From the IMG/VR virus record IMGVR_UViG_3300001263_000001: DNA of 39,054 bases. One strand, 5' to 3'. The notes below the pieces were generated by a model. It had not been told where the DNA came from. It searched no databases and was given only the letters and a program-made list of their open reading frames with translations. Below, piece by piece: positions 5,983 to 25,337 of this stretch. Source of the DNA: a virus. How positions within the stretch are numbered: position 1 is the first letter of the stretch; each line of letters opens with the position of its first letter. A program made the position numbers and the translations under genes.

Positions 5983-5987
5983 TGCGT

Positions 5988-6964: not shown

Positions 6965-7001
6965 TTTAAATTCCTTTTTTGTGTTGTTCGTAAGATCACC
7001 A

Positions 7002-7019: not shown

Positions 7020-7121
7020 ACGTCAACATCGAATATCAAAAAAAATAATATAATTTTACTTTAATAAATAAAATGCTATTATTTATATAAATTATCTATC
7101 TTAAAAAAAATGGAATGAATT

Positions 7122-7604
7122 ATGGAAGTTTTAGGAGTTACAAAAACATCAAGAGATACAGCCATTGTGAAGTTGTCCGAAAGATACAGAAGCATTTTTC
7201 CAGTGCCAAGCTTAATCGAACTCAATAGCATATTCCCTGAGCACCTTATGGGGATGTATAGACATGCAAAGCAAGAGAACAAATTCTCTCTTTCCCAAAC
7301 ACATCCAAATTTTGCAGCAGACATGCAGGAAATAAATGCGCAGCTGGATGCAGACCAAGCAGAAGCAGAACAAATATATCTAAGAACGAAAGAAGAAGCA
7401 CGTCAAAGACACGCCGCCGCCGCAAAGCAAAAAATCGAATCAATACTGCCTAAAACAAGCGACCATTTTGAGCCAAAAATTATTAAGTTTGTCCCTGCGG
7501 ACGATAGTGAAAATAAATATGGATCTGTAGAAATTGATTATAATACGATCCTATTCGATGCAAGACCAACAGCAACAGAAGAGGAAGAAGAGAGGGAAAT
7601 TTAA
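7122..7604 (+). CDS. hypothetical acidic protein preceding terminase
   Basis: ORF ends in a TAATG overlap with TerS. Start uncertain because internal Met codons exist. Confidence 0.5.
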   Translation: MEVLGVTKTSRDTAIVKLSERYRSIFPVPSLIELNSIFPEHLMGMYRHAKQENKFSLSQTHPNFAADMQEINAQLDADQAEAEQIYLRTKEEARQRHAAAAKQKIESILPKTSDHFEPKIIKFVPADDSENKYGSVEIDYNTILFDARPTATEEEEEREI

Positions 7605-8014
7605 TGACTAAGCTTACGGCTAAGCAAGATTTATTTTGCCGTGAATTTATTATTGATTTGAACGCAACGCAAGCAGCAGTAAGGGCAGGATATAGTGAGA
7701 GAACTGCCCGAATTACTGCAAGCAGACTGCTATCAAATGTTAACATTGCGAGTCGTATCAATGAGTTAAAGGAAAAAAGAGAGAAAAAAGTAGGAATTGA
7801 TGCGCAATGGGTTTTAGAACGTGCAGTAGAATTGCATAATATTTGCGTTAAAGAAAAAGAGTATAATGCTGCAAATAAATCACTGGAAATTGTAGGGAAG
7901 CACATCAGCGTGAATGCATTTGATAATAAGGTGACACTTGCAGGAGATCCAAATAAACCACTTATAACTCGTGTGGAGCGTGTCATTGTCGACCCTAAAA
8001 ATTCAGACTCCTAG
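7604..8014 (+). CDS. terS: terminase small subunit
   Basis: LTAKQDLFCREFIIDLNATQAAVRAGYSERTARITASRLLSNVNI is the Terminase_2-type signature. Confidence 0.9.
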   Translation: MTKLTAKQDLFCREFIIDLNATQAAVRAGYSERTARITASRLLSNVNIASRINELKEKREKKVGIDAQWVLERAVELHNICVKEKEYNAANKSLEIVGKHISVNAFDNKVTLAGDPNKPLITRVERVIVDPKNSDS

Positions 8015-9212: not shown

Positions 9213-9247
9213 TATAATGTTATTTATGATAAATATAGTTGGATAAT

Positions 9248-11276: not shown

Positions 11277-12122
11277 ATGACTGATAACGAAACGGTAGAA
11301 AAACCAGAAGAACAAGAACAGCAGATTGAGAATAATCCTGAAGATCAAATTGAGGAAACTCAAGGCGATAGTCATGATGACGAGCAAGAAGAAGTTGTTG
11401 TATCTTTTGGTGAGGATTCACCACCTCAAGAAGATAGCACTCCAACGCCTGACTGGGTGAAGGAGGTTAGAAAAGAAAATAGGGAGAAGGCAAAGCGCAT
11501 CAAGGAACTTGAGGCAAAGATTGCAGAAAAAAAGGAAGCGGAAGCACCTCAAAAGTTGCGAGATAAGCCAAAATTAGCAGATCATGAATATGATGATGCT
11601 GTTTATGAGAGTGATCTTGAGAAATGGTATCAGGAAAAAGCCGTTTATGAAAAGAAATCTGCAGAAGTTGAAAAACAAAAGCAGACAGAACTTCAAAAAT
11701 GGCAACAGAAGCAAGAAGCATATCGAGAAAAGAAATCAAAAGTTCCTTTTCGAGATTATGACGAGGTTGAAGATGATGTGAAAAGCACACTGTCCGACAC
11801 GCAGCAGGCAATGCTTGTGAAGCTTGCAGACGATCCTACCACTATTGTTTATGCGCTTGGTAAAAATTCTGAAAAGCTTAAAGAGCTATCTTTGATTAAC
11901 GACCATGCCGAATTTATTTATAAACTTGCTAAATTAGAGGGGCAGTTAAAAGTGACCACAAGGAAACCTAAAACCGCACCTGAGAAGCTTGTCAAGTCAT
12001 CGGGTGGCGCATCGTTTTCAGTAGATAAGACGCTTGAAAAATTAGAGCAAGAAGCCGATAAAACTGGAGATCGTTCTCAAATTTTGGCTTATAAAAGAAA
12101 ACTTAAAAGAGAGAAAGGTTAG
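11277..12122 (+). CDS. scaffolding protein
   Basis: Highly charged, coiled-coil-like. Lies between portal and coat, as P22 gp8 does. Confidence 0.7.
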   Translation: MTDNETVEKPEEQEQQIENNPEDQIEETQGDSHDDEQEEVVVSFGEDSPPQEDSTPTPDWVKEVRKENREKAKRIKELEAKIAEKKEAEAPQKLRDKPKLADHEYDDAVYESDLEKWYQEKAVYEKKSAEVEKQKQTELQKWQQKQEAYREKKSKVPFRDYDEVEDDVKSTLSDTQQAMLVKLADDPTTIVYALGKNSEKLKELSLINDHAEFIYKLAKLEGQLKVTTRKPKTAPEKLVKSSGGASFSVDKTLEKLEQEADKTGDRSQILAYKRKLKREKG

Positions 12123-12124: not shown

Positions 12125-13270
12125 ATGTCTAACGCATTTTCAAAAGAAGAAAAAGTAGCTTTTGATGAAATCTTAGAGGGGTTTCACGATCAGCTAGTTT
12201 TGTCCAGTTTGGTTAATAAATTTAACACTGGCATGACAGATATGGAGCGTTCTTCTGATACAATTTGGAGACCGCAACCATATATTGCACAGTCCTACGA
12301 TGGATCTGACGCAACGAGTAACTTTAATGATAGCACACAGCTTTCAGTTCCTGCGACTATTGGTTATCAAAAACACTCGACTGCTTTGCTTACAGCCAAA
12401 CAATTACGTGACATGCTGCAAGAAAAAAGATTGGGTCAAGCTGCTGCGCAAAAATTAGCTTCTGATATTAATAAATCCGTGACGGATGTTATTTCTAATC
12501 AAGGCACTGTTGTCGTGGCACGCTCCGCTGCTGCATCTGGTTTTGATGACGTTTCTGAGTGTGACGCAACATTAAACGAGTTGGGAGTGGATTATGCCAA
12601 TCGTTGTCTTGGTCTTTCAAGTCGTGATTATAATGGCATGGCAAGCAACCTTGCTGCACGTCAAACAATCAATGAAATGCCAACCGCAGCATATCGCCGT
12701 GCATATGTCGGAGAGGTTTCAGGCTTCGAGACATATAAAATGGACTATGCTAATCGTTTAACTGCTGCTGCTGGTACAACTGTTACTATTAACGGTGCAA
12801 ATCAGTATTACACGCCAAGGGCTACAAGCACAGCTTCTGGCCCTGGTGAAGTCTCGAATGTGGATATTAGAATTATTGAAGTCCTTACAGGAAGCGGTGG
12901 CTCGGGAACTGTTAAAATTTCCCCTCCTATTATTTCAGGTGGCGGAAGCACAGACGCAGAAGAGCAATATAAAAATGTTTCTGCTACGCCTGCGGATGGT
13001 GCAGCGATTACATTTTTGAATATTGCTACTGCTTCAGTCAATCCGTTTTGGACTAAAGACAGCATAGAATTGCTTCCTGCAAGTTTGGGAATGCATGATA
13101 AATCTTCAGATCAGATTATTCGTGCAAGAACAGATCAAGGAATTGAAGTTGTTATGCAGCGTGACTTTGATATTAATACACAACAAACTAAATATCGTTG
13201 GGATGTTTTGTATGGTGTTGTTAATTTGCAGCCTCAGATGTCTGGTTTGATGCTTTTTTCCCAAACATAA
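12125..13270 (+). CDS. major capsid (coat) protein, P22 gp5 family
   Basis: AFDEILEGF, MERSSDTIWRPQ and FWTKDSIELL parallel P22 coat AVDEIIETI, MQRSSNTIWMPV and FWADDAIRIV (recollection). Confidence 0.9.
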   Translation: MSNAFSKEEKVAFDEILEGFHDQLVLSSLVNKFNTGMTDMERSSDTIWRPQPYIAQSYDGSDATSNFNDSTQLSVPATIGYQKHSTALLTAKQLRDMLQEKRLGQAAAQKLASDINKSVTDVISNQGTVVVARSAAASGFDDVSECDATLNELGVDYANRCLGLSSRDYNGMASNLAARQTINEMPTAAYRRAYVGEVSGFETYKMDYANRLTAAAGTTVTINGANQYYTPRATSTASGPGEVSNVDIRIIEVLTGSGGSGTVKISPPIISGGGSTDAEEQYKNVSATPADGAAITFLNIATASVNPFWTKDSIELLPASLGMHDKSSDQIIRARTDQGIEVVMQRDFDINTQQTKYRWDVLYGVVNLQPQMSGLMLFSQT

Positions 13271-13325: not shown

Positions 13326-13604
13326 ATGACAGTAATGCTTTATAAACCAAACGGTTCACATAAAATTCATGGCGGCATGTTTGATTATATTATCGTTGAT
13401 GATAGTGAAGTTGACACTGCCCTATCTGACGGATGGTTTAGAACAACAACAGAAGCAAAAGAAAGCGTTGAAGGTGACGTTTCTGACGCACCACCAAGCC
13501 GCAAAGAATTAGAGCAGAAGGCAAATCAATTAAAAATTAACTTTGCGCCGAATATAAGCGATAATAAGCTTTTTGAGCGTATCAATAAAGCCTTACAGAG
13601 GTAA
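13326..13604 (+). CDS. hypothetical protein with a C-terminal HeH/SAP-like motif
   Basis: ORF track 13311..13604. AAAGG lies 8 nt before ATG 13326. The C-terminus is SRKELEQKANQLKINFAPNISDNKLFERI. Confidence 0.6.
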   Translation: MTVMLYKPNGSHKIHGGMFDYIIVDDSEVDTALSDGWFRTTTEAKESVEGDVSDAPPSRKELEQKANQLKINFAPNISDNKLFERINKALQR

Positions 13605-13605
13605 T

Positions 13606-14091
13606 ATGGGTTATACTAAAAGACAATTTATTGACATGGCTTTGGAGGAAATTGGTGTTGCTTCTTATGAATTTGATATTTCCCCTGAGGAACTTCAAAG
13701 CGCATTAAAAAAACTTGATGCTATGATGGCAACATGGAACGCCAGGGGGATAAGGTGTGGTTATCCAATCCCCTCCAGTCCTGAAAATTCTACTTTAACA
13801 GAAGAAACAAACGTTATTGACGCTGCGAATGAGGCGATATATCTAAATTTGGCGGTACGTATTGCGCCTTCTTTTGGTAAAATGGCGATGCGTGACACAA
13901 AAACGAACGCAAAGGCAAGCTATAAGTCTTTAATGAATGTATGTTCTGAAACGCAAGAAATGCAATTCCCCAGAACTTTGCCAAGAGGGCAGGGAAATAA
14001 AAACTTTGGAAACCGAAATTTTAATAAATTTTTTGTTGAAACTGACCCTATTACAGTTGGGCGTGACGCAATACTAAATCTAAAAGGATGA
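13606..14091 (+). CDS. head-to-tail adaptor, P22 gp4-like
   Basis: FIDMALEEIGVASYEFDISPEELQSALKKLDAMMATWNARGI parallels P22 gp4 [39 protein letters not shown] (recollection). ATG 13606 follows AGAGGTAAT. Confidence 0.85.
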   Translation: MGYTKRQFIDMALEEIGVASYEFDISPEELQSALKKLDAMMATWNARGIRCGYPIPSSPENSTLTEETNVIDAANEAIYLNLAVRIAPSFGKMAMRDTKTNAKASYKSLMNVCSETQEMQFPRTLPRGQGNKNFGNRNFNKFFVETDPITVGRDAILNLKG

Positions 14092-14094: not shown

Positions 14095-14559
14095 ATGACA
14101 GACATTAATAGGCTGACAGCTGTTGACAGTTTAAGTGGTGGCGATAATTTCCCTTTGTATGACCAGTCTAACGGTGATGCGAGAAGAACTTCACTTACAA
14201 CCTTGACCTCTTACCTCCAAAATGAATTATCATTTGGTGCGTTTATTCCGCAGCTTACCACACAATATTTTGCACCAAGTGCAACAGGATTTACGGCAAC
14301 AATCACGGATGGACCTGATAGTGTACATTTGATTTTAACGCCTGTCGGAGATTATGCCACTGGTGCAATTGTTTTACCGCCTGCTTTGAGTGCAAAAGAT
14401 AAGCAGATAATTCTTGTGAATTGCACAAGATCTATTACGGCGTTGACTATTACGAGCGTGGGCGGCACTGTGACAGGTGCGCCAACCACAATCAGCGCAC
14501 AAGGTTATTTTAGGTTAAAATATGATGCTGTAACTTCTACATGGTATAGAGCTGGCTAA
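14095..14559 (+). CDS. hypothetical virion protein (inserted between the gp4-like and gp10-like genes)
   Basis: RBS AAAGGATGATAA. The N-terminal motif LTAVDSLSGGDNFPLYDQSNGDARRTSLTTLTSYL resembles tail-fibre N-termini. Confidence 0.6.
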   Translation: MTDINRLTAVDSLSGGDNFPLYDQSNGDARRTSLTTLTSYLQNELSFGAFIPQLTTQYFAPSATGFTATITDGPDSVHLILTPVGDYATGAIVLPPALSAKDKQIILVNCTRSITALTITSVGGTVTGAPTTISAQGYFRLKYDAVTSTWYRAG

Positions 14560-15962
14560 TGCAAATACCTATTTTGAGTGGCATATATACAGATAATAAA
14601 GCAGATTACAGGACTTCTTATCCAAGAAACATGGTGCCAGTTCCAAAAGAGCAAGGCATATCACAAGGATATTTAAAGCCTTCAGAGGGCATAAAAACCT
14701 TTATCGAGACGGATGGAATTGATCGTGGTGGCATAGTATGGAATGATCTGATGTATAGGGTCATGGGAAGTAATTTATATATTATTTTTAAAGATGGAAC
14801 GTCACAGTTAATAGGAAATGTTGAAAATGATGAAAAGCCTGTAAGATTTGATTATTCATTTGATATTCTTGCCATTTGCTCCAATCAATCTGTTTACCAC
14901 TATGACGGGGTTTCTTTGACAAAAGTCACAGATCCTGACTTAGGAGATGCAAATGATCTTTTGTGGGTTGACGGTTATTTTATGACCACTGACGGAGATA
15001 ATCTTGTTGTATCTGATTTAAATGACCCCACTTCTATAAATCCTTTAAAATATGGTTCCTCTGAAATAGATCCTGACCCTGTCGTTGCAATAAGAAAAGT
15101 GCAAGGTGAAGTATATGCAATAAATAGACACACTATAGAGGTCTTTAATAATATCGGGGGTGCTTTATTTCCTTTTCAGCGTGTCGAGGGGGGCGTCATC
15201 TCTCGTGGCGCAATAGGTCGTGACGCTGTTGTTGTTTATGACGATGCACTGGCATTTGTTGGCGGTGGTCGCAATGAAAGCATAGCCGTATGGGTTGGCA
15301 TAAATGGAAGCTCTCAAAAGGTAAGCACAAGGGAGATAGAACAAGAACTTCAATCCTACACAGAAGACGAATTAAAGTCTATAATCCTAGAAACAAGACG
15401 CTCTGAGGGGCACTTTTTTTTATACATTCACCTGCCTGATAAGACATTTGTTTTTGATGCAGCAGCAACAAACGTTTTAAATAAGCCAGTGTGGTTTGTT
15501 TTGACCTCGGGCGTTGCAGAAAAAGGAAAATATAATGCAAGATTTATGCTATACGCTTATGGCAATTATTATTGTGGGCACCCTTCTAAAAATTATATAG
15601 GCAAAATGACCAATGAGACACAAGAGCAATATGGGGAAAAAGTGACCTGGTCTTTTGGGACGCAAATGATTTATAATGAGGGAAAAGGTGCAATCGTCAA
15701 TAGTCTTGAACTTGTCGCACTATCTGGCAGATCGGTTCTTTCTGATAATCCTCAAATTTCCACGCAATATTCTCTTGATGGAATTACCTATTCACAGCCT
15801 AAATATATAAGCTCTGGTAAGATTGGACAACGCTTAAAGCGGCTTGTTTGGCGCAGGCAAGGCAAAATGAATAATGTTCGCACTCAAATTTTTTCAGGTG
15901 ACAGTGACAGTTTTTTAAGTTTCTCTAGGCTAGAGGCGAATTTGGAGCCTTTAGCATGGTGA
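14559..15962 (+). CDS. tail hub / packaged-DNA stabilisation protein, P22 gp10-like
   Basis: REIEQELQSYTEDELKSIILETRRSEGHFFLYIHLPDKTFVFDAAAT parallels P22 gp10 ASIEKIIRSYTAEEMATGVMETLRFDSHELLIIHLPRHVLVYDASSS (recollection). Similar length (467 vs about 472 aa). Confidence 0.85.
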   Translation: MQIPILSGIYTDNKADYRTSYPRNMVPVPKEQGISQGYLKPSEGIKTFIETDGIDRGGIVWNDLMYRVMGSNLYIIFKDGTSQLIGNVENDEKPVRFDYSFDILAICSNQSVYHYDGVSLTKVTDPDLGDANDLLWVDGYFMTTDGDNLVVSDLNDPTSINPLKYGSSEIDPDPVVAIRKVQGEVYAINRHTIEVFNNIGGALFPFQRVEGGVISRGAIGRDAVVVYDDALAFVGGGRNESIAVWVGINGSSQKVSTREIEQELQSYTEDELKSIILETRRSEGHFFLYIHLPDKTFVFDAAATNVLNKPVWFVLTSGVAEKGKYNARFMLYAYGNYYCGHPSKNYIGKMTNETQEQYGEKVTWSFGTQMIYNEGKGAIVNSLELVALSGRSVLSDNPQISTQYSLDGITYSQPKYISSGKIGQRLKRLVWRRQGKMNNVRTQIFSGDSDSFLSFSRLEANLEPLAW

Positions 15963-17377
15963 TATTATCTCCAGTCAAACCCACACGGCAGGAACTTGCC
16001 AGAATATTTCCTGACCCAAGAATGTTACGTGCTGTTGAAGGTATTTTTAACGCTGTTCCTTCCGAATTAAACAATCAGCAAGAATTAATTGATGAGATTT
16101 ATTTTCAATCTATATCAAATACATCATCAATAAATTCTATTCGGCATCAAGTAAGTACAATCCAATCTTTTGAAAACGCTATCACAGTTAAAGACGTTTC
16201 TGATTTTGGAAAGATAGAAAGCAATCTTGTTACTCCAGATCCGACAAAGCTATATAGAATGGACGGCTTTGTTAATGTCGGATCTGTTTCTATTGTAGCG
16301 CCCGAAATGGGGATTTCTTGCGCTGCTCCTCGAGGAGGGCGTAATATTTCAGGGCTGTATAGCAATGAAGAGAATCACGTCATGTTTGTGTCGCCCCAAG
16401 GTGGATACTCTGGTGATGTCATTCTGAACGGTATAACAATCTATCAAGGGGGTGATGGTTCTAAAATATTTGATCTTAATAATGATGGAAATTCTGGGTC
16501 TTTGGATGTAAGCAATGTAAATTTCGGATCATTTTCGGCGTTTGGAAAAACAACTTTAGGCGAACTAAGTAATTATAGACAAATGCTTATGAATAGGTGT
16601 GCTTTTTTGTTTTTGAAGGATGGGCTTGTTTTCAATGGCACATGGGAAGGTATGGCAATTCTTGATTCTGTTGCTATTGTTTTCCCTGCTTTGGCGACGC
16701 TTTTGGCAGAAGGGACAACTTTTACAGTAGGCAATATTAGATCAAACATAAATTTTATCTCTGTAGCCAGCAACTCTGTTTTTCTTGATTTTTCAGAGTC
16801 TAATATTATTAATAACGGCGGCGCATCACTTACAAACGTTCGCTCTGGTGCAGATGATGCGGTTCCTAATTTGCCTGGGTCGAGTGTGAAGGCACGATAC
16901 AAGAATTGTGATGGCATACGTAACACATATGTTGGTGGTGAATGGGTTATATTTGAGGCAGCAGATGAAGTGGAAACAGTGATTGCAAGTGCCAACACGC
17001 CTGTAAAGCTTGAGGGAGTAACGACTTATTCAGATCTTAATCATTTTAGCAATACCACTGACAATGCTTTTGTTTATGATGGCACGCAAACAATAGAGGT
17101 CGAATGTTTTGGGGTTCTGAATATTGAGGGCGGAAATGGTGACACATTTGATGTGTGGTTTAGAAAATGGGACGATGCGTTATCTTCTTATACTGACAAA
17201 TATAAATCATCAGGCACTTTGGACGGAAGCGGTAAATCTTCTAATACTTGTATAAGGGCTTTTGCAAGTTTGAAAAATAATGATAGAATTGAGGTATGGG
17301 TTCAAAACACTAAAGATAGTTCAAATTTAACTGCAAAAGCACAATCAAGTGTTCAAGTAAAGGAAAGATCATCATGA
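15956..17377 (+). CDS. tail protein of unknown function (occupies the needle/gp26 slot)
   Basis: ATGGTGA overlap with the gp10-like gene. Beta-rich, Asn/Ser/Gly-rich sequence. No recognisable gp26 coiled coil. Confidence 0.55.
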   Translation: MVILSPVKPTRQELARIFPDPRMLRAVEGIFNAVPSELNNQQELIDEIYFQSISNTSSINSIRHQVSTIQSFENAITVKDVSDFGKIESNLVTPDPTKLYRMDGFVNVGSVSIVAPEMGISCAAPRGGRNISGLYSNEENHVMFVSPQGGYSGDVILNGITIYQGGDGSKIFDLNNDGNSGSLDVSNVNFGSFSAFGKTTLGELSNYRQMLMNRCAFLFLKDGLVFNGTWEGMAILDSVAIVFPALATLLAEGTTFTVGNIRSNINFISVASNSVFLDFSESNIINNGGASLTNVRSGADDAVPNLPGSSVKARYKNCDGIRNTYVGGEWVIFEAADEVETVIASANTPVKLEGVTTYSDLNHFSNTTDNAFVYDGTQTIEVECFGVLNIEGGNGDTFDVWFRKWDDALSSYTDKYKSSGTLDGSGKSSNTCIRAFASLKNNDRIEVWVQNTKDSSNLTAKAQSSVQVKERSS

Positions 17378-17706
17378 CTATTGCGACAAAAGTGCTTGTG
17401 GATAGTAAATATATGGAGGCTTCTCAACAGGATCAAGTGACCCCAACCGTTCAAACATTTATAGATACATTTTCTGTTACCAATATTTCTACTGCAACTG
17501 CTAATTTTTCTGTTAACATTACCGCAATAAATGACACCGTAGATAATAAAAATAAAATAATAGATCAAAAATCAGTGCGTTCAGGGGAAACTATTATTGT
17601 GAGCGAAGTCATAGGAAACGTTTTAGAGACAGGAAATAAGTTGAGCACAATTGCAAGCTCTGGATCCGCTCTTGTTATGCGCATTTGCGGAAGGGAAATA
17701 ACATGA
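17374..17706 (+). CDS. hypothetical protein
   Basis: ATGA overlap with the upstream gene. Confidence 0.55.
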   Translation: MTIATKVLVDSKYMEASQQDQVTPTVQTFIDTFSVTNISTATANFSVNITAINDTVDNKNKIIDQKSVRSGETIIVSEVIGNVLETGNKLSTIASSGSALVMRICGREIT

Positions 17707-18557
17707 CGAATGATATTGATACGATTGATTTATCTGCTCTCAAGTGCAAGCCTGTTGATGTGCCAAGCCTTGAAAAAGAAATGCTGAAAATGCCACAAGC
17801 TGATTGCCCTGTTGTGCATCATTTTGGGAATGGGATTTATATGCGTGAAGTGCGTCTTTCAAAAGGTCTTATATGCATAGGGCACAAACAGAAAAAAGAG
17901 CACTTAAATGTTATGCTTACAGGGCGTGTAATGATGCTTGATAGTGATGGCAATCTAAATGAGGTCAAGGCACCTTTTATCAAAAACAGTCCAGCAGGGC
18001 GCAAGGTGGGCTTTGTTTTAGAGGACACTGTTTGGTTAAACATTTATTCAACAAATGAAACAGACATAGAAACTTTAGAAAACACTTATCTTGATAAAAG
18101 CATAGGGTTCAAAGAAAATGAGAAAATATTATTTAATGCGCAATATGCATTAAGACAATGTGACCGAGATGATTTTGATTTATTTTGCAAAGAGTATTCT
18201 TTAACAAAAGAGCAAATACAAAAAGAGACAGAAATGACAGCGGATCTTGTGGATATGCCATTAGAGTGGCGGTCTTGCTATTCATTGCGTCAATCGCCCA
18301 TATCAGGAAAAGGGATATTCGGTTCAAAGCCTTTTGAAAAAGAAGAAATTATTGCACCTGCTAGAATTGGAAATGGTCGCACAGATATAGGGAGATATAC
18401 AAATCATTCCCATGAGCCAAATTGTATTTTCAAAAAAATCAATAATGATGTATATTTAGTTGCGAATAGAAATATTAATGGTTGCGCCGCTGGTACGCAT
18501 GGGGAAGAATTGACGGTAAGTTATCGTCAAGTTATGGAGTTGAAATGTCAGGAATAG
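17703..18557 (+). CDS. cupin-like / SET-domain fusion protein
   Basis: C-terminal SET signatures: SPISGKGIFGSKPFEKEEII, GRYTNHSHEPNC (NHSxxPN motif) and GEELTVSY. The N-terminal half, CPVVHHFGNGIYMREVRL...IGHKQKKEH, is His-rich and cupin-like. ATG 17703 lies behind GGAAGGGAAATAAC and has an ATGA overlap. Confidence 0.75.
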   Translation: MTNDIDTIDLSALKCKPVDVPSLEKEMLKMPQADCPVVHHFGNGIYMREVRLSKGLICIGHKQKKEHLNVMLTGRVMMLDSDGNLNEVKAPFIKNSPAGRKVGFVLEDTVWLNIYSTNETDIETLENTYLDKSIGFKENEKILFNAQYALRQCDRDDFDLFCKEYSLTKEQIQKETEMTADLVDMPLEWRSCYSLRQSPISGKGIFGSKPFEKEEIIAPARIGNGRTDIGRYTNHSHEPNCIFKKINNDVYLVANRNINGCAAGTHGEELTVSYRQVMELKCQE

Positions 18558-19156
18558 CAACGGCAGTCATTGGTTCCTCAGTAGGCAGTGGGCTTCTTTC
18601 TGCTAGCGCAGCAGACAAGGCAGGAGATGCACAAGTTGCTGCGTCAAGATCCACCCTTGAAGAACAAGCACGACAATTTGATGAGATGAAAGAATTGATG
18701 AAACCTTATATCGATATAGGGACGGATTCTTTGGGTGCTCAAGCTGATTTGTTGGGCATTGGTGATGGATCGCAGCAGGAAGCCATAGATCAATTTTCAC
18801 AATCCCCATTGTTCCAATCTTTAACGCAGCAAGGTGAGGACGCAATTTTGCAAAATGCAGCGGCTACGGGCGGATTAAGAGGGGGCAATACTCAAGGAGC
18901 TTTGGCACAATTTAGACCTGCAATGCTTAATCAAATCCTGCAACAACAATTTAGTAATCTTGGCAATCTTACCGCATACGGTCAGGCTTCAGCAGCAGGG
19001 CAAGGGGCAGCAGGACAAAATTACGCAAATGCAGTGGGGAATATCAATTCTCAAATTGGCGATGCGCAAGCGCAAGAGATTGCAGGTCGTACACAGGCAT
19101 ATGGTGGGATTTTGAATGGATTAACAAAGGCATTTGGTCAAACAGGAGGCTTTTAA
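18545..19156 (+). CDS. Gly/Ala/Gln-rich internal virion (ejection-type) protein
   Basis: ORF track 18482..19156. ATG 18545 follows GGAGTTGAA. The low-complexity composition and position are like P22 gp7. Confidence 0.55.
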   Translation: MSGIATAVIGSSVGSGLLSASAADKAGDAQVAASRSTLEEQARQFDEMKELMKPYIDIGTDSLGAQADLLGIGDGSQQEAIDQFSQSPLFQSLTQQGEDAILQNAAATGGLRGGNTQGALAQFRPAMLNQILQQQFSNLGNLTAYGQASAAGQGAAGQNYANAVGNINSQIGDAQAQEIAGRTQAYGGILNGLTKAFGQTGGF

Positions 19157-20907
19157 TGTTTAACTATTTAGATGCTATAAAAATGCCAGATATGACACAA
19201 TCCGCTTTTGAGGGTTATAAAATCGGCGAAGTTATGCGAGCGAATGAGGCTGCAAAAGAAGCCAAGATAAGAGAGCAAGAGCAACAAGAGCAAACTCAAT
19301 TAATGATTCAAGACTTCATTAGTAAACCAAACAAAACCCCTCAAGATTATTCTGATATGATGCTTAAGGTGCCAAGCCTTGCAGATAATTTCAAAAAATC
19401 TTATGACGTTATGGATCAGGGGCGTAAAGAAGCCATGCAAAGAAAGACTCTAAACGTATTTGCAGCTTTGCAAAATGGGGACATTGATACAGCGAATAAA
19501 TTATTAGACGATCAAATAACAGCAGCGCAAAATTCAGGTGATGAGCGTTCGTTAAATGGCGCAAATCTTCTTAAAAAAACATTGGAAATCAATCCTGAAG
19601 CTGCAAAATCAACGTCTGGTTTGTTTTTATCTTATGCCCTGGGCGGTGAAAAGATGGCGGAGGTCATGGGGCAGTTCGGCAAAGAAGGTCGGGCAAAAGA
19701 AATGCAACCTTTTGAGACTGCTCTGATGCGTAAAGATATTGCTCTCAAGGCAGAGGAAGCAGGCGTTAAAAGGGCAACTGTCAATAAAATATTGGCAGAA
19801 ACCAAAGATATTGGCGTTAAAACACAAAAAACTTTACTAGATTTAGAAATAGCTCGCAATAATCCGAACGGAATACAACAGAAGGATATTGTCAAAGCTG
19901 AAAGTGAGTTAAGAAAAGAGGCGACAAGCGTTTTGCAGAAAAATAGAGATGTAAGAAAATCTCGGGATCAAATGTTGTCTATTTTGGGGAACGTTGGGGA
20001 AAATGGGGCAGAACTTGGCGCAGCGGATGCCGCCGCAGTTGTCACATTCTTCAAGACGATAGATCCCAATTCTACAGTAACGGCAACAGAAGGCGGAATT
20101 ATTCAGGGGGCTGAAGGTTTGCAAGGTCAACTAGCAGCGATTTGGAATAAAGCAGTAAATCAAGGGTCGTTTACCGATGAGGCTAGAAAAGCATTAATCA
20201 ACACGTCACAGCGGATTTACGCACCTGTTCAAAAAGAGGCGCAATCTATACAATCCAAGTATACTGATATTGCAAATAGATCTGGGCTAAATCCTGAAAA
20301 TATTTTTATTACTGATTATGATGAGCCTGAAAAACAACAGGACAATGAAAGTTTCACTTTTGATCCGAATAGTTCGTACTCGGAAAGAACGCAAAGATTA
20401 TTATTTGAAAGAAATCAAAAAAAAAAGCCCGTGAATAATCAATCGTCTGCTGCAAGCTCTAAGTATTATGAAAGGTTGGCTATGGCGGAGTCTGGAAACA
20501 ATCCAAATGCTAAAGCAAAGACAAGCAGCGCAAGCGGATTATTCCAGTTTATAGATAGTACTTGGCGTAATATGGTTGACAAATATGGTGATAGTACAGG
20601 AATAACATTAGCAGACAAAAACGATCCGCAAGCACAAAAGAAAATGGTTGAATTATTTACTCAAGATAATGCAGACTTTTTGAAAAAAAAGGGCATTAAT
20701 CCTAGTGATGGTGATTTATATATTGCCCATTTTTTAGGGGCACCTAAAGCTGAAAAGATGATTAAAATGAAAAACAGCAATAAAATAGCAGCTTCAGTCT
20801 TCAACAAAGAGGCTAAGGCAAATCGCCCTATATTCTTTGAAAGAAACGGTAAGGCTCGGACAATGTCTAAAGTTTATGATGTTTTAACATCAAAGGTTGA
20901 AGCATGA
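19156..20907 (+). CDS. internal virion protein with a C-terminal lytic transglycosylase (SLT) domain
   Basis: YYERLAMAESGNNPNAKAKTSSASGLFQFIDSTWRNM carries the SLT catalytic E-S ... GLxQ motif. Confidence 0.85.
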   Translation: MFNYLDAIKMPDMTQSAFEGYKIGEVMRANEAAKEAKIREQEQQEQTQLMIQDFISKPNKTPQDYSDMMLKVPSLADNFKKSYDVMDQGRKEAMQRKTLNVFAALQNGDIDTANKLLDDQITAAQNSGDERSLNGANLLKKTLEINPEAAKSTSGLFLSYALGGEKMAEVMGQFGKEGRAKEMQPFETALMRKDIALKAEEAGVKRATVNKILAETKDIGVKTQKTLLDLEIARNNPNGIQQKDIVKAESELRKEATSVLQKNRDVRKSRDQMLSILGNVGENGAELGAADAAAVVTFFKTIDPNSTVTATEGGIIQGAEGLQGQLAAIWNKAVNQGSFTDEARKALINTSQRIYAPVQKEAQSIQSKYTDIANRSGLNPENIFITDYDEPEKQQDNESFTFDPNSSYSERTQRLLFERNQKKKPVNNQSSAASSKYYERLAMAESGNNPNAKAKTSSASGLFQFIDSTWRNMVDKYGDSTGITLADKNDPQAQKKMVELFTQDNADFLKKKGINPSDGDLYIAHFLGAPKAEKMIKMKNSNKIAASVFNKEAKANRPIFFERNGKARTMSKVYDVLTSKVEA

Positions 20908-23156
20908 CACCAGAAGAAATACAAGCACTTGAAAATGATTTGATTGTTGCTGATGAGGCTGGTGACACAGAAACTCTTAATGCAATCTTAGACATTCTAG
21001 AGGATATAGATCAGACCATGGAAAAGCCACCTGCCCCACCTTCTGACAAAGGTTTTTTTGGTGAATTGGCAAGTGGTGCGGTTGATGTCTATGAGGGGGC
21101 AAAAGAAGCATTTACAGGTGAGGAAAGAAGCACTCCAGAGATTGAGGCATTGCCTGATATTTCTGATATGCCCGTAACTGAAGGATTTAGTGAAATTTTA
21201 AAAGGTCTTGGTCTTGGCGCATCAACATTATTCGCTGATAAAGAAGAAACAAGAAAAATATTAGAAAGCAATATTGAAGGCTTAACAGTCCGTGAGGATG
21301 AAAAAGGGAATTATATTTATAAAAACCCGATAGATGGGAAAGAGTACGCTTACAAGCCTGGATTCCGAGCTTCTGATATTCCTAAGACTATTGCTAGCGT
21401 TTTAGCCTTTACGCCTGCTGGGCGTGGTGCATCTTTGGCAGGGCGTGCAGGGTTGGCAGGGGCTACACAAACGGCTATTGAAGGCGGTCAGGCTGCAATG
21501 GGTGGTGAGTTCAATCCTGAGCAAGTTCCATTGGCAGGGGCTATGCAATTCGGGGGGGACATTGCAGGACGTGCCATAACCGCAGTCGCACCAAAATCTG
21601 CACTGGCAGGAAAAGTTATTGATGATTCAACGCCTGATTTGCCTATGTCAGATCTCGTTTCCAAAGCATCGGGCAGTGACGGATTGTTTACTGGTGGTGC
21701 AAAGCGTATTGTTCAAGAGCAAGTGAAGCCAGACCAGAATATTGTGGAAGCAGCAAAAAGATTAGGAATAGAGGAGTTTTTGCAGCCAGATCATGTCAGT
21801 ACAAATCAAGCTTTTAAAGAATTATCTGCTGGGGTGAGATCGTTCCCCGGGATGCAATCGAGACAATTAGAACGAGAAGGTCTTGAAAAGGTTGCAGAAA
21901 GGGCAGATAATTTAATTGAAGAAATTGGCGGAATGCAAGATTTAAGCCAAATGAATAATAATATTCGTGACGCTTTGACAGAAACGCAAGAAAGTCTTTT
22001 GCAGAAATCAGATAAATTATATAGCGAAGTGAATAAGTCTATACCACCCAAAACGCCAGCGGCTGCAAATAATTTATTGAGTTTTTTAAATAAAAAAGCA
22101 GACGAATTGGGCGGTGTTGAATTTCTTTCAGGGCAAGAAAAAAGCCTTTTAAATTCTATGACACCGACAAAAGCGAAAGACGGAAAAGAAATATTCCCGA
22201 CATATGCCAGATTAGATGGTGTAAGAAAAAGCTTAACATCGGCAAGGGTTAAAAAAGAAGGAATATTTAAAGATGCGGAAAGTGGTATTTTAAAAAAGCT
22301 TGAGCAAGAATTATTGAAAGATCAAAAGATAATAGCAGAGAATGCAGGGGTCGGAAAAGTATTTGAAGAGGCTCGGAAAACAGTTGCTATTCGTAAAGGC
22401 GTAGAAGATGATTTAACGGCTTTATTTGGAAAAAATTTAGAAAAATCTATTGTTTCCAAGCTATCTACAGGCGTAAAAAAATTATCAACAGGTGATGTGA
22501 CTGGTTTATCTAAAATTCTTAGATCTGCCCCCGAAGCAAAGCGGCAAGAAATTGTTGCCAGTGGATTAAATGCTGCTTTTGGAAAAACTGCAAAGCGTGG
22601 TGATCTAAATTTTTCTTCTTATGCCAAGTGGTACGAAGGATTAAATAAAAACAAACAGGCAAAGTCTTTAATCTTTTCAAATCTGCCAAAAGAGGCGCAA
22701 AAAAGCTTAGATGATCTATACAAAGTCTCTAAAGGTATATCAACATCATCAAAAGAGGTTATTACTACGGGGCGTATCGGATCAGTTCGAGACGAATTTG
22801 CTAATGCTGATAGCTTAATTGGAAAAATATATTCAGTGGGGCGTAACATCGGTCAGGCAGCGGCAGCAGAGGGAGCGGCTTCAGCTGTCGGAATACCTGG
22901 GGCTGGTCTTGTGGGTTATATGGCTGCATCTTTAAAAGGCGGAAAAACGGATGCCATAAAAGCAGCGGATAAGCTTTTAACATCGCCTGTATTTATAGAA
23001 AATGCCAAAAAAGGCACACCAGAAGCCGCACAAAAAATTGCAAATTCTGCACCCTTTAAACAATTTCTTAATAAACTATCTCAGAATCAAAGAATTTCGG
23101 ATCCTGTTCAATTTATAACAAATGCCTTTCAAGCATCAAAAAACCAAAGCGAATAA
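20904..23156 (+). CDS. large internal virion / ejection protein
   Basis: 750 aa, Ala/Gly/Lys-rich, with an ATGA overlap. Position is like P22 gp20/gp16. Confidence 0.6.
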   Translation: MTPEEIQALENDLIVADEAGDTETLNAILDILEDIDQTMEKPPAPPSDKGFFGELASGAVDVYEGAKEAFTGEERSTPEIEALPDISDMPVTEGFSEILKGLGLGASTLFADKEETRKILESNIEGLTVREDEKGNYIYKNPIDGKEYAYKPGFRASDIPKTIASVLAFTPAGRGASLAGRAGLAGATQTAIEGGQAAMGGEFNPEQVPLAGAMQFGGDIAGRAITAVAPKSALAGKVIDDSTPDLPMSDLVSKASGSDGLFTGGAKRIVQEQVKPDQNIVEAAKRLGIEEFLQPDHVSTNQAFKELSAGVRSFPGMQSRQLEREGLEKVAERADNLIEEIGGMQDLSQMNNNIRDALTETQESLLQKSDKLYSEVNKSIPPKTPAAANNLLSFLNKKADELGGVEFLSGQEKSLLNSMTPTKAKDGKEIFPTYARLDGVRKSLTSARVKKEGIFKDAESGILKKLEQELLKDQKIIAENAGVGKVFEEARKTVAIRKGVEDDLTALFGKNLEKSIVSKLSTGVKKLSTGDVTGLSKILRSAPEAKRQEIVASGLNAAFGKTAKRGDLNFSSYAKWYEGLNKNKQAKSLIFSNLPKEAQKSLDDLYKVSKGISTSSKEVITTGRIGSVRDEFANADSLIGKIYSVGRNIGQAAAAEGAASAVGIPGAGLVGYMAASLKGGKTDAIKAADKLLTSPVFIENAKKGTPEAAQKIANSAPFKQFLNKLSQNQRISDPVQFITNAFQASKNQSE

Positions 23157-23159: not shown

Positions 23160-25337
23160 ATGACAGCACTTTTAATAAACAACCCGTACACCTCGTTTAA
23201 TGATCTTGATGGAAAACCATTGCAAGATGGCAAAATATACATCGGCACAGAGGGTCTTAATCCAGTTGTAAATCCCATTAATGTTTATGCGGATAAGGAA
23301 CTGCAAATCCCCTTGCAGCAGCCCATAAGAACTCTTAGCGGTTATCCAGTATCGGGTAACTCTCCTGTGCGAATGTTTCTCAATAATATTGATTATTATT
23401 CTATTTCTATTTTTGATAAAAATGATCGTTTTATTTATTCTTCTTTAAGGGTTGATGCCAACCGCCCTTCAACTGAATCGACTGTAAATGTTAAAGACTA
23501 TGGCGCAGCAGGGGATAATGTCACGGACGATCAAATCGCAATTCAAAATGCAGTGTCATATGCATATAATAATAACAAATATCTTTTTTGGGATTATGGG
23601 ACATATGTTGTTAATTCATCAATTGATAATTTTCATGATGTAGTTCATGTTGGAAATGGAATATTAAATAGAAATGGAAATTTATATTATATTTCTCCTC
23701 AAAGCATAAGCAATATAAACACATTATTTGTCTCAAAGACTGGGAATGACACAAACGATGGGATGTCCACTACAGGATCTCTCTTAACGCTTCAAAGGGC
23801 TGCTGATTTATTAGAAAGCAAAGGAGATTTTTTACAGGGATCATGGGTAATATCTGTTAGTGACGGAACCTATGACCGCATCCGCTTTGATGATGATGGG
23901 GTTAAATATGCAAATCCTATTGTTTTGCAGGGTACGCCTCGTAATGTTTCCTCTGGTGAAGTGTGGCTTGCAATGGGCGCACCAACTGGCGGCACAGATG
24001 AAGAACCTGGTGTTATTTCTGGGACTTTTTCAGAAGGTGAAACAATTTCTGGCAGCGTAAGCGGCTTTACTGGATCAGCCACATTTGACGGCGTTGCATT
24101 TATAAAGGCGACTATCACAAGTGGAACGCCACAAATTAACGATGTTGTAACTGGGGCAACGTCTGGGGCATCTGGTAAAGTATTGGCATTATCTCCTATT
24201 CCAACTGTTATTATCAAAGAAGGATTGACGCAATCAGCCGTGGGTGTCAGAGCCGCAAATTCAACAGACATTACAATTAAGGATATTTTAATCCAAGATT
24301 TTAATGGCACAAAATCCTCTTCTGGTGTGAATGTTTCAAATAAGTGCAATTTAAAATTAGAAAACGCTCACTTTATTGATTGTTATATCGGGGCAAGCAA
24401 TCAAAACTATGGAATTATTGATATTAAGGGTGGTGTGTTTTATGATTGTGGTTACTTAAATAGTGCAGACGCAGGTGGTTATGCTATTCGAGGTCTATTT
24501 CACTGCAAATATTCTGTTGGTACCCAAAATGCAGGTGATATGGAAAATGCTCCAATCATACAAGGTTGCTACATCGGTGTGTTTGGTCAAGAATATTGCA
24601 CTGGACACGTAGATTATACGTACATTAGAAATAATGTTATCGGCTCAAGATTGTCTATTGGTTGCCGTGTGAATTATGATGGCTCGAGGCTTTATGACAA
24701 TGCGACCAATGCATGGGCTTCTGATAATTCTATAATCTCTCCATCGTCTAATACAATTGTCGGTAAGGGAGTAAATCAACACAGTGTATCAAACTACATT
24801 TCAGGTGCATCATGTTCTATATCAACTAATTCTGGGCTAGATGGATTTTCTCCTGCCTTATTTCCTGAAGAACGTACTGTAATGGCAAGGTATGACCCAG
24901 TTACTATTAATACGATCGCTGGAACGGCAATTTACGAGCTTCCTACTATTGCGCCATATCTAGGTGAGGTTTATGGAAGTTCTATTCCTGCTCAATATTT
25001 TAAAATAGAAATTTATGGATCTTTAAGCGGAACAAATGATGTGAAGCGTATAACGCATAGATTTGGCGGTACAAACATTGGGCAAATATCATTTTTGAGT
25101 TCTGAAACAGGAAAATTTTACGCACAAGCTGTTGTAATTTTAGGCAGTGGGGGCGTGGGGCAATATGGGCACATCCAAGGATCACACCACTTAGGCAGCA
25201 CAGCAAGACATTCTTCAAATGCGTCCGCAATCAATTTGAATACAACCGATGCGACTTATCGTTTAGAGGTACAAGTTGATAATGTTTCTGATAGTGTTAC
25301 AGTTGACTCTTATATTGTGAAAGCCTGTGGATTTTAG
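23160..25337 (+). CDS. tailspike with a pectate-lyase-like right-handed beta-helix
   Basis: VNVKDYGAAGDNVTDDQIAIQNAVSYAY is the Pectate_lyase_3/tailspike signature. It is the last gene of the virion module. Confidence 0.8.
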   Translation: MTALLINNPYTSFNDLDGKPLQDGKIYIGTEGLNPVVNPINVYADKELQIPLQQPIRTLSGYPVSGNSPVRMFLNNIDYYSISIFDKNDRFIYSSLRVDANRPSTESTVNVKDYGAAGDNVTDDQIAIQNAVSYAYNNNKYLFWDYGTYVVNSSIDNFHDVVHVGNGILNRNGNLYYISPQSISNINTLFVSKTGNDTNDGMSTTGSLLTLQRAADLLESKGDFLQGSWVISVSDGTYDRIRFDDDGVKYANPIVLQGTPRNVSSGEVWLAMGAPTGGTDEEPGVISGTFSEGETISGSVSGFTGSATFDGVAFIKATITSGTPQINDVVTGATSGASGKVLALSPIPTVIIKEGLTQSAVGVRAANSTDITIKDILIQDFNGTKSSSGVNVSNKCNLKLENAHFIDCYIGASNQNYGIIDIKGGVFYDCGYLNSADAGGYAIRGLFHCKYSVGTQNAGDMENAPIIQGCYIGVFGQEYCTGHVDYTYIRNNVIGSRLSIGCRVNYDGSRLYDNATNAWASDNSIISPSSNTIVGKGVNQHSVSNYISGASCSISTNSGLDGFSPALFPEERTVMARYDPVTINTIAGTAIYELPTIAPYLGEVYGSSIPAQYFKIEIYGSLSGTNDVKRITHRFGGTNIGQISFLSSETGKFYAQAVVILGSGGVGQYGHIQGSHHLGSTARHSSNASAINLNTTDATYRLEVQVDNVSDSVTVDSYIVKACGF

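Follow-up and report, generated by a model that had tools for sequence, protein, structure and literature searches.

A cupin–SET fusion protein encoded next to the ejection genes of a P22-like podovirus

The window analysed here, a 39,054-nt stretch of viral DNA (IMG/VR record IMGVR_UViG_3300001263_000001), contained a late gene of a P22-like podovirus whose product had two domains, an N-terminal cupin and a C-terminal SET domain, connected by an acidic helical linker (Table 1). An ORF check of the window placed the ATG of this gene at position 17703 and its TAG codon at positions 18555–18557. The gene was joined to the ORF on its 5' side (17374–17706) by an ATGA overlap, a translational coupling that the initial annotation had proposed and that was evident in the sequence, and its end overlapped by 13 nt with the next gene, whose ATG was located at 18545. 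The same annotation had placed the gene directly upstream of the ejection proteins, and this position was borne out by the match of its 3' neighbour to Pfam P22_gp7. The fusion protein matched phrog_34170, a family of unknown function, over its full length (8e-79). It had 264 homologues, and the best 120 of these 264 spanned 88–100% of the query. No nucleotide similarity of the DNA to known phages was detected by megablast. The GC and GC3 values of the fusion gene matched those of the neighbouring genes, and a recent horizontal acquisition was unsupported.

Table 1. Positions of the fusion gene, its domains and motifs, and the surrounding genes in the window.
Feature	Coordinates	Strand	Basis
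P22 gp10-like tail hub (Hc3), start of the conserved module	14559..15962	+	phrog_578, 2e-102
110-aa ORF, ATGA-coupled, 5' of the fusion gene	17374..17706	+	ORF, sequence
Cupin–linker–SET fusion gene	17703..18557	+	ORF and sequence; 284 aa, TAG stop
Cupin (double-stranded β-helix), residues ~20–121	17760..18065	+	AF2, Foldseek, phrog_12032 and phrog_24280 matches
Cupin motif-1-like segment G55-x5-H61-x-Q63-x3-H67-x6-G74	17865..17924	+	conservation in the 150 closest clusters
Acidic helical linker, residues 122–192	18066..18278	+	AF2 helices, pI 4.4
Mini-SET domain, residues 193–284	18279..18554	+	Pfam SET, profile alignment to MLL1, Foldseek
N-SET motif SPISGKGIFG, residues 198–207	18294..18323	+	conservation in homologue alignment
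RYTNHSHEPNC, NHxxxPN SAM-binding/pseudoknot motif, residues 231–241	18393..18425	+	conservation
GEELTVSY with catalytic Tyr274, residues 267–274	18501..18524	+	conservation
P22 gp7/T7 gp14-class small ejection protein	18545..19156	+	Pfam P22_gp7, 5e-18; phrog_598 'DNA ejection'
Second ejection protein, C-terminal lytic transglycosylase	19156..20907	+	phrog_4067, residues 428–582
Third large protein, ejection-protein position	20904..23156	+	phrog_6704, 1e-113; weak transglycosylase match
Tail fibre/tailspike region, apart from the cupin gene	23160–25337		example within the window

The neighbouring genes followed an arrangement that was also found in related loci. At the position equivalent to the tail hub, the loci L015 and L017 carried a match to Pfam Phage_stabilise. 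The ORF coupled to the 5' end of the fusion gene gave no family match, NCBIfam included, and ORFs of ~106–114 aa were located at the equivalent position in P26218, RSK1, VvAW1, L015, and L017, to which its product was weakly similar (35% identity to the L015 ORF). The third large protein downstream may also have an ejection role, as its position suggests.

The C-terminal ~100 residues of the protein formed a SET domain with intact SAM-binding and catalytic motifs, as the initial annotation had claimed, and the three motifs quoted there were all present. The Pfam SET family (PF00856) was matched over residues 178–274 with 27.3 bits (E 4.9e-6), above the gathering cut-off of 22.4. The family profile matched the MLL1 SET domain in the PDB with an E value of 4.8e-7, and vSET with 6.5e-4. 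The AlphaFold (AF2) model of the 284-aa protein had a pLDDT of 91.2 and a pTM of 0.85, with pLDDT values of 87–98 over residues 191–280 in the SET half. In Foldseek searches, the model matched the SET domain of MLL4 (PDB code 4z4p), a Catovirus SET, and a Marseillevirus SET; for the last, the r.m.s.d. was 1.0 Å and the target TM-score 0.76. The SET fold was recovered by profile and structure searches alike, and, judged by the Pfam score, the MLL1 profile match, and the predicted fold, the three motifs are far beyond chance.

These motifs were strongly conserved. In an alignment of 37 homologues with 40–52% identity, residues Ser198, Ile200, Gly204, and Phe206 of the N-SET motif, residues Asn234, His235, and Asn240 of the NHxxxPN motif, and residues Gly267, Glu269, Thr271, and Tyr274 at the catalytic tyrosine were invariant, as was the GxG motif formed by Gly202 and Gly204. 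Across 103 SET-bearing cluster representatives (clustered at 50% identity), Gly204 was kept in 96, Asn234 in 93, His235 in 94, and Tyr274 in 93; the Asn234–His235 pair and Tyr274 occurred together in 89. The NH and Tyr motifs were lost in about nine of the 103 SET-bearing clusters, and the SET domain was absent altogether from 47 of the 150 closest clusters. With the domain decayed in some members and missing from many relatives, methylation would be dispensable for the core function of the family. From the minimal SET fold and the conserved catalytic motifs, the domain is predicted to be a SAM-dependent protein-lysine methyltransferase.

Among solved structures, the best sequence matches of the domain were SET domains of the MLL/KMT2 type, to which the N-SET and C-SET blocks aligned, including the catalytic Tyr. 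Compared with MLL1 in the profile alignment, the SET-I insert was nearly gone, as ~9 residues separated the N-SET block from the C-SET block where MLL1 has ~44, and the post-SET domain was lacking. Also unlike MLL, the fusion SET contained a 6-residue 'GCxGGxxG' insertion before GEE(L/I)T.Y. The SET-I region is variable and hence not strictly family-defining, although its near absence is still unusual. The domain resembled PBCV-1 vSET/A612L (PDB codes 1n3j and 3kmt) and the SET proteins of giant viruses, with a core of ~100–120 aa and neither pre-SET nor post-SET Zn clusters, and it shared with these minimal viral SETs the GxG, NHxxxPN, and ELxxxY motifs. Its N-SET/SET-I region had ~25 fewer residues than that of vSET. 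Unlike the viral SETs, the domain was joined to a cupin by an acidic helical linker and was encoded by a bacteriophage, inside a virion/ejection gene module. As the host has no histones, the substrate must differ from that of the minimal viral SETs.

The SET-I region normally walls the substrate groove, and with this region nearly absent, activity is not to be assumed. The domain could be a catalytically dead structural module that serves for protein binding only, a reading with which the almost missing SET-I and the members in which a SET-shaped domain remains but the NH or Tyr motifs are gone are consistent. Such a pseudoenzyme is nevertheless quite unlikely, since the checked SAM-binding and catalytic residues were intact in the window and in those 89 of 103 clusters, a conservation that would be difficult to account for if the domain were inactive. 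SET proteins of very small size are also known. The vSET protein, an active enzyme, has 119 aa, and the predicted Marseillevirus SET that matched the model has 100 aa.

The N-terminal half of the protein was a cupin, a fold that the initial annotation had suggested and that was supported by a Foldseek fold match and a His-rich motif 1. The strands of the cupin covered residues 37–116 in the AF2 model, and Foldseek aligned this half with the cupins 2fqp, 2i45, 3fjs, and 3lag at a probability of 1.0 and target TM-scores of 0.6–0.69; the targets were bacterial cupins of 95–110 aa, such as 2fqp, 2i45, and 3fjs. The homologue P0126 scored 26.3 bits on Pfam Cupin_2, just under the gathering score of 27.2. 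The stand-alone cupins of RSK1, phiAp1, VvAW1, and BPP-1 (Bbp23) were homologous to the cupin half. Within the 150 closest clusters, His61 was found in 129, His67 in 117, and Gly74 in all 150, while position 63 was always His (76) or Gln (74). Residues His39, Arg48, Asn69, and Lys101 were also conserved in these clusters.

When the segment was compared with the canonical cupin motif 1, G(X)5HXH(X)3-4E(X)6G, residue His67 stood in place of the Glu. In the region of motif 2, for which the canonical form is G(X)5PXG(X)2H(X)3N and the family consensus was PGRKxGY, no His was present at the fourth-ligand position of P97-A-G99-R-K-V102. Residues His61, His63, and His67 were not conserved in the stand-alone relatives and were wholly missing in the BPP-1 lineage (GALIKVSTVLIF). 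A putative metal site was strongly conserved in the closer relatives but, given the BPP-1 lineage, was rejected as a universal feature of the family.

The cupin might itself be a metal-dependent enzyme, such as a hydroxylase or demethylase, which would make the fusion a bifunctional writer/eraser or a two-step modifier. The near-canonical spacing of G-x5-H61-x-[H/Q]63-x3-H67-x6-G74, the conservation of His39, Arg48, Asn69, and Lys101, and the genuine AspH-family 2OG-type cupin that fills the equivalent slot in Limnohabitans phage DC33 are in line with this. The reading is nonetheless unlikely. The HxD/E...H triad was absent from the sequence, as H61-x-Q/H63 provided no carboxylate and no distal His followed W111-x-N113, and both the missing motif-2 His and the loss of the His cluster in stand-alone relatives argue against catalysis. 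Homology to AspH/2OG-type cupins was rejected at an hhalign probability of 0.2 against the AspH-type phage cupin, and in Pfam the fusion protein matched no JmjC, Cupin_8, or AspH family. The 50 Foldseek PDB matches listed included no JmjC or 2OG oxygenase; almost all were small classical cupins or bicupins, and the others were the MLL4 SET and a handful of folds unrelated to either. The connection to JmjC-type hydroxylases and demethylases that had been raised with the cupin assignment was abandoned on these grounds.

The two domains were separated by a linker that was helical in the AF2 model (residues 122–129, 134–150, 152–164, 169–177, and 187–192). In the alignment of 37 homologues, Asp181 of the linker was invariant and Asp157 nearly so.

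A search of IMG/VR with the same alignment found relatives of the fusion protein in at least 547 loci, and in each of the 80 loci examined the fusion was contained in a single ORF; among uncultured phages, cupin–SET fusions are common. In 75 of the 80 loci, a gp7-like gene was identified; in 74 of these 75 it was located directly 3' of the fusion gene, and the overlap was typically -3 or -12 nt. The cupin alone constituted a larger family of 3,325 clusters, labelled "short tail fibre". The stand-alone cupin gene likewise adjoined a gp7-class gene in the P22-like RSK1, VvAW1, and Vibrio 1.211.B and 1.067.O, and in the phiKMV-like phiAp1, SnaP-R1, and VAC_51. In BPP-1, ctQRb9, and H4/4, the pair was relocated beside the portal gene, yet it was intact; the 3' product began with MS[G/W/F] and continued with a hydrophobic segment rich in Gly/Ala. 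The cupin gene forms a fixed pair with the gp7/T7-gp14-class gene, always as its immediate 5' neighbour and usually overlapping it, and the conserved core of the family is the cupin rather than the SET domain. Both features had been missed in the initial annotation.

This pairing bears on the database labels, which describe the protein as a short tail fibre or adhesin. What speaks for such a role is annotation only, namely the names 'short tail fiber protein' (phrog_12032) and 'tail fiber adhesin' (phrog_24280) and the RefSeq labels of RSK1, phiAp1, BPP-1, and VvAW1. No experimental basis was found for the label, and the R8W paper only modelled the protein. A fibre or adhesin is highly improbable, since the protein was a compact single-domain cupin of 100 aa with a His-rich pocket, not a fibrous one, and was fused in the window to a predicted SAM enzyme of an intracellular type. 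Its gene was paired with an ejection gene, while the fibre/tailspike genes were located elsewhere, as in the window and in phiAp1 (gp47), and in BPP-1 and H4/4 it preceded the portal gene. The label should give way to one that names the cupin as a partner of the small ejection protein, the role that the gene pairing suggests.

The slot between the tail needle/nozzle gene and the gp7/gp14-class gene is occupied in P22 by gp14 (head assembly) and in T7 by gp13 (internal virion protein A), which are similar in size to the stand-alone cupins (138–151 aa). Homology of the cupin to P22 gp14 and T7 gp13 was rejected, with hhalign probabilities of 0.05 and 0.4, respectively, and a BLASTP E value of 0.59, and neither of the two proteins has an enzyme domain, unlike the fusion. 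The cupin of BPP-1 Bbp23 and of the phrog_12032/phrog_24280 family was, by contrast, homologous to that of the fusion (hhalign 98.7%). The Bbp23-type gene, like the fusion gene, was located 5' of a gene for a small MS-G/A-rich protein. These cupins differed from the fusion in that they had no SET domain. In BPP-1 and ctQRb9, the His cluster was lost and the partner was a separate GNAT acetyltransferase, whose gene was coupled to the cupin gene. In DC33, the equivalent slot contained the AspH-family oxygenase together with a GNAT.

By its gene order, the cupin would bind or chaperone the small ejection protein or its assembly site, and would take the role that the non-homologous P22 gp14 and T7 gp13 have in the equivalent slot. 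Proteins of the T7 gp14 class are insoluble in water and require a solubilising partner (review PMC8954989). The cupin would thereby place the methyltransferase beside the ejection or internal virion proteins during their assembly, and the SET domain would methylate lysines of these or of co-assembling virion proteins, before or during packaging. We tentatively favour, at a little below even confidence, a cupin that acts as an ejection-protein partner or adaptor and brings a predicted lysine methyltransferase into the assembly of the ejection proteins. As to the target, methylation of the phage's own proteins is preferred, and co-packaging with host targets is nearly as likely. The gp7-like protein contained only 2.5% Lys, and it was rejected as a conserved substrate, since none of its lysines reached 60% conservation across 79 sequences; the partner that would come to mind first is therefore not an obvious substrate.

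The lack of a conserved Lys in gp7 is also consistent with a packaged effector. The cupin would then anchor the fusion in the capsid, the protein would be ejected with the gp7-, gp20-, and gp16-class proteins, and the SET domain would methylate a host protein. By analogy with T4 Alt and P1 DarB, nucleoid-associated, defence, or transcription/translation proteins would be its targets at the very start of infection. T4 Alt, an ADP-ribosyltransferase, and P1 DarB are packaged modifying enzymes, late or virion-encoded and delivered with the DNA; their folds and chemistries differ from those of the cupin–SET protein, for which packaging is only proposed. A late-expressed enzyme could act early in infection only if packaged, and the ejection modules of close relatives contained enzymatic cargo, such as the DarB-like antirestriction giant protein of VvAW1 and the N6-adenine methylase giant protein of Vibrio 1.211.B, and in L017 an ORF that extended over at least 2,651 aa. 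The second ejection protein in the window itself contained a transglycosylase. An accessory arms-race function would suit a SET domain that is present in some relatives, absent from others, and decayed in still others, and the annotation of T7 gp13, from the equivalent slot, is that of an internal virion protein.

For P22 gp14, which also occupies the slot, the annotation is in contrast that of an assembly protein and not of a virion component, and the literature places no homologue in virions by proteomics. A β-barrel and a knotted SET domain would also need to be unfolded and refolded through the tail channel, whereas known podovirus ejection proteins are mostly helical and the cargo proteins of crassviruses are predicted to be mostly helical. 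We regard the packaged effector as possible but doubtful. A similar standing, well short of probable, is given to the wider proposal that the cupin–SET protein is co-packaged, injected, and host-methylating, and that the slot is a hot spot for protein-modifying enzymes (SET, GNAT, and AspH-type oxygenase) attached through a common cupin adaptor.

The packaged-effector reading resembles the known case of the large SET effectors Legionella RomA/LegAS4 and Chlamydia NUE, in that a SET methyltransferase made by the parasite would be put into the host cell. Those effectors leave the pathogen by type III/IV secretion and act on eukaryotic histones, whereas the fusion protein, if delivered at all, would enter a bacterium by way of a phage tail. 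To our knowledge, no phage-encoded protein-lysine methyltransferase has been reported, and a search of the full-text literature found nothing on phage SET proteins, virion methylation, or the proteomics of phages that bear homologues; a 'SET domain' match in a paper on crassviruses had no bearing on the question. If injection is true, the protein would be the first protein-lysine methyltransferase to be delivered by a phage, the equivalent in a bacterial virus of the SET effectors of intracellular pathogens, and would represent a new class of effectors that act in early host takeover or against defence. If the ejection proteins are instead modified, as in the preferred reading of a cupin adaptor, a post-translational layer would be added to the still poorly understood assembly of the ejectosome. 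In either case, an abundant group of aquatic podoviruses carries a predicted SET enzyme as part of the virion/ejection gene module, within a cupin family of thousands of clusters. The cupin–SET fusion was also present in two cultured phages, Rhodoferax phage P26218 and Pseudoalteromonas phage PH1, which make experiments possible now.

The genome was circularly closed and complete (~39,017 bp, 37.4% GC), with a 37-bp exact terminal direct repeat (window 1–37 = 39018–39054), and by its gene order the virus is a P22-like podovirus. A search of 50,697 phage records found no nucleotide-level relative; IMG/VR contig 3300001269_000025 (L018) carried a copy of the cupin-SET gene with 99% identity. The ATG of the gene overlapped the preceding stop codon as ATGA, and the gp7-like ejection protein gene began 13 nt inside its 3' end. 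Both the translational coupling and the position directly upstream of the ejection proteins, as read in the initial annotation, were thus borne out. The GC and GC3 of the gene were like those of the neighbouring genes. The ORF in the tail needle position had no match in Pfam or NCBIfam, and its equivalents varied greatly among relatives.

Coordinates of the cupin-SET gene, its neighbours and the corresponding slots in other phages
Feature	Coordinates	Strand	Remark
Large terminase	7971–9212		
Portal	9239–11254		
Scaffold	11277–12122		
Coat	12125–13270		
gp4-like adaptor	13573–14091		
gp10-like hub	14559–15962		
473-aa ORF	15956–17377	+	P22 tail needle (gp26) position; sole match phrog_16509 (unknown function)
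110-aa ORF	17374–17706	+	ATGA-coupled to cupin-SET gene
Cupin-SET fusion gene	17703–18557	+	ATG 17703, TAG 18555–18557; 284 aa
P22_gp7-family ejection protein gene	18545–19156	+	directly after cupin-SET gene
583-aa protein			downstream of gp7-like gene; transglycosylase at C-terminal end
750-aa protein, then tailspike-like protein, then endolysin			downstream of 583-aa protein gene
Bbp24 (GNAT N-acetyltransferase), Bbp23 (cupin), Bbp22 (small gp7-like)	L010 (BPP-1) 6501–7828		between terminase and portal genes
GNAT, cupin homologue, small gp7-like	L098 (ctQRb9, MW202722) 5197–6505		between terminase and portal genes
Oxygenase and GNAT slot	L099 (Limnohabitans phage DC33, PQ492659) 4327–5731		

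The C-terminal half of the fusion protein was recovered as the SET domain originally proposed, with the quoted motifs present at residues 198–207, 231–241, and 267–274. The score of the Pfam SET match was 27.3 bits (gathering cut-off, 22.4), and a profile of the 37-sequence family matched the SET domain of MLL1 (E = 4.8e-7) and PBCV-1 vSET (6.5e-4). The AlphaFold2 model of the fusion protein (pLDDT 91.2, pTM 0.85) resembled the MLL4 SET domain and giant-virus SET proteins in a structure search, and the Marseillevirus SET was superposed on it with an rmsd of 1.0 Å over 91 columns. By profile, motifs, and predicted fold, the protein is assigned to the SET superfamily. Residues S198, I200, G204, F206, R226, T227, G230, R231, N234, H235, N240, G267, E269, T271, and Y274 were invariant in the 37 homologues (40–52% identity). 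N234–H235 and Y274 were retained in 89 of the 103 SET-bearing cluster representatives (50% identity), and it is quite improbable that the SET domain is a pseudoenzyme. Position 243, the equivalent of the SET7/9 Phe/Tyr switch, was mostly F, M, L, or I. In characterised SET domains, the switch residue bears on the multiplicity of methylation; by this analogy, the rarity of Tyr (7/103) hints at multiple methylation.

The family profile aligned with MLL1 in two blocks (residues 184–212 and 222–276), separated by ~9 residues where MLL1 has ~44; SET-I is therefore almost lacking. The viral mini-SETs were nearest in size, whereas the fusion protein has its own SET-I almost deleted. The pre-SET and post-SET Cys clusters were absent. 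The linker upstream of the SET domain (residues 122–192) was acidic and helical, with a pI of 4.4, and may take over as the wall of the substrate groove that is otherwise lacking. A 6-residue insertion, 'GCxGGxxG', preceded GEE(L/I)T.Y (window 18483–18509, residues 261–269). Its Cys261 was at least 90% conserved in the alignment of the 37 homologues and present in 57 of the 103 cluster representatives, and 19 of the 37 family members had a Cys among their last 9 residues (in the window, KCQE). The insertion and the C-terminal Cys may stand in for a post-SET element.

The N-terminal half had been read as a cupin barrel, and almost all of the 50 PDB matches listed by Foldseek were classical cupins. 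The best of these were single-domain proteins of 95–120 aa (2fqp, 3d82, 3fjs, and 2i45; target TM-score 0.6–0.69), and the lower-ranked ones were larger bicupins, such as oxalate decarboxylase. The domain is accordingly placed in the cupin superfamily by predicted fold. A near-canonical motif 1 was present (G55-x5-H61-x-Q63-x3-H67-x6-G74). In the 150 closest clusters of an exhaustive search, R48 and K101 were retained without exception, position 63 was always H or Q, and H39, H61, and H67 were retained in 142, 129, and 117 clusters, respectively. This conservation makes a metal or ligand pocket plausible in this branch.

A tentative JmjC kinship of the cupin had also been suggested and was not upheld. 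Neither the HxD/E...H triad nor the motif-2 His was found in the cupin sequence, comparison by hhalign with a bona fide AspH-family phage cupin gave a probability of 0.2, and no JmjC or 2OG oxygenase was among the Foldseek matches listed. In addition, the His cluster was relaxed in stand-alone cupin relatives and wholly lost in the BPP-1 lineage. The cupin domain is neither a JmjC nor an AspH enzyme. The missing triad and motif-2 His and the hhalign result also make it improbable that the protein is a bifunctional enzyme with a catalytic cupin.

The fusion had 264 homologues at E ≤ 1e-3, the best 120 of which covered 88–100% of the query. Relatives were encoded at at least 547 IMG/VR loci, and cupin and SET were in a single ORF at all 80 loci examined. 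The family corresponds to phrog_34170 (unknown function); one viral homologue is labelled 'SET domain containing protein' in UniProt, and one GenBank contig names the gene after its similarity to vSET. The cupin-SET feature is real, abundant, and conserved, and its predicted activity and putative target can be tested in two cultured phages that carry the fusion, P26218 of Rhodoferax and PH1 of Pseudoalteromonas. The family defined by the cupin alone was larger, with 3,325 clusters at E ≤ 1e-3 and 1,108 at E ≤ 1e-10, and SET was present in 103 and absent in 47 of the 150 closest cupin representatives. Because SET is absent or decayed in some representatives of this larger family, the cupin is the core and SET a frequent, usually catalytic-looking, dispensable addition. 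About nine short representatives (218–263 aa; P0190, P0138, P0185, P0151, P0137, P0231, P0256, P0244, and P0221) kept behind the cupin a SET-shaped domain without N234–H235 and the catalytic Tyr, which looks like a decayed domain or pseudoenzyme. Representative P0126 (264 aa) was a tandem cupin-cupin without SET. P0153 (545 aa) had an extra N-terminal region of ~270 aa ahead of the cupin-SET; by eye this region resembles a glycosyltransferase, and the protein may be a gene-calling fusion.

The gp7-like gene was found at 75 of the 80 IMG/VR loci and directly followed the fusion gene at 74 of these, typically with an overlap of 4 or 13 nt. The common module, running from the gp10-like hub through needle-position ORF(s), a ~110-aa ORF, the cupin with or without SET, and the gp7-like gene to the larger ejection proteins, was present in P26218, RSK1, VvAW1, Vibrio phages 1.211.B and 1.067.O, and metagenomic contigs L015 and L017. 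In PH1 and Dickeya phage Amaethon, the cupin-to-gp7-like pair was kept in a different surrounding order. In the phiKMV-like phiAp1, SnaP-R1, and VAC_51, a stand-alone cupin was flanked by tail tubular protein B on one side and the first internal virion protein on the other. Relocation of the cupin next to the portal gene was seen in BPP-1, ctQRb9, and Alteromonas H4/4, where it was still directly followed by a gene for a small protein with an MS[G/F] start and a Gly/Ala-rich hydrophobic stretch, resembling the N-termini of the window gp7-like protein (MSGIATAVIGSSVGSG) and T7 gp14 (MCWAAAIPIAISGA). Scored with gp7 HMMs built for this analysis, the downstream proteins gave E values of 3e-18 (474-aa protein of L017), 2e-13 (Amaethon), 3e-6 (H4/4 gp31), 9e-5 (DES1), and, marginally, 6e-3 (Bbp22). 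That the gene pair survives being moved speaks for a direct functional tie between cupin and small ejection protein. The cupin family also bears 'short tail fibre / adhesin' labels, for which no experimental basis was found; neither the fold nor the gene linkage agrees with them, and a tail fibre is most improbable. The 110-aa ORF of the window had no family match. ORFs of similar size occupied its position in P26218, RSK1, VvAW1, L015, and L017, and it shared 35% identity and a ...SGREIT terminal motif with that of L015. This ORF may belong to the module as its third conserved gene.

In the model that we propose, the gp7/gp14-class ejection protein would have the cupin as its adaptor or chaperone, and the mini-SET would be an active lysine methyltransferase that the cupin brings into the pathway by which ejection proteins are assembled. 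T7 gp14 is insoluble in water and depends on a partner for its solubility (PMC8954989). The same slot holds gp14 ('head assembly protein') in P22 and gp13 ('internal virion protein') in T7, neither of which is homologous to the cupin. The gp7-like proteins had a Lys content of only 2.5%, and none of their lysines was conserved; this leaves as candidate targets the larger ejection proteins, which are rich in Lys, a different virion protein, or, following co-ejection, proteins of the host. Modification of phage proteins at assembly time is given somewhat under an even chance, and a packaged effector whose SET domain would act on host proteins is considered somewhat less likely. A mini-SET joined to a putative cupin adaptor, at a fixed place within the ejection module, is an uncharacterised combination.

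Modifying enzymes have repeatedly been recruited to the cupin/ejection neighbourhood. Both BPP-1 and its distant relative ctQRb9 had a gene for a GNAT acetyltransferase translationally coupled to the cupin gene, and these cupins have lost the His cluster. In DC33, an Asp/Asn beta-hydroxylase-family 2OG oxygenase (PF05118, 52.6 bits) and a GNAT preceded the Bbp22-like gene. The DC33 record carries the taxonomy line Inoviridae and annotates all genes as 'hypothetical protein'; the taxonomic assignment looks wrong, since the genome is 39 kb and its gene order here is BPP-1-like, with the Bbp22-like gene followed by an ORF of ~570 aa at the place of the portal gene. Enzymatic cargo of the ejection module is exemplified by giant proteins of cupin-bearing relatives: VvAW1 gp01 (L008 7995–12324) is annotated as DarB-like antirestriction and that of Vibrio phage 1.211.B (L007 8145–12447) as an N6-adenine methylase, and the ORF of L017 (12678–18855) encoded at least 2,651 aa. 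Among 79 gp7-like proteins from SET-bearing phages (window 18545–19156 and L018–L097), a nearly invariant N-terminal Met-Ser (Met 75/79, Ser 74/79) was followed by a Gly/Ala-rich hydrophobic segment; as a speculation, this Ser could be a target of BPP-1-type phage GNATs. According to the annotation of P22 gp7, its first 20 residues are removed by the host OpdA protease.
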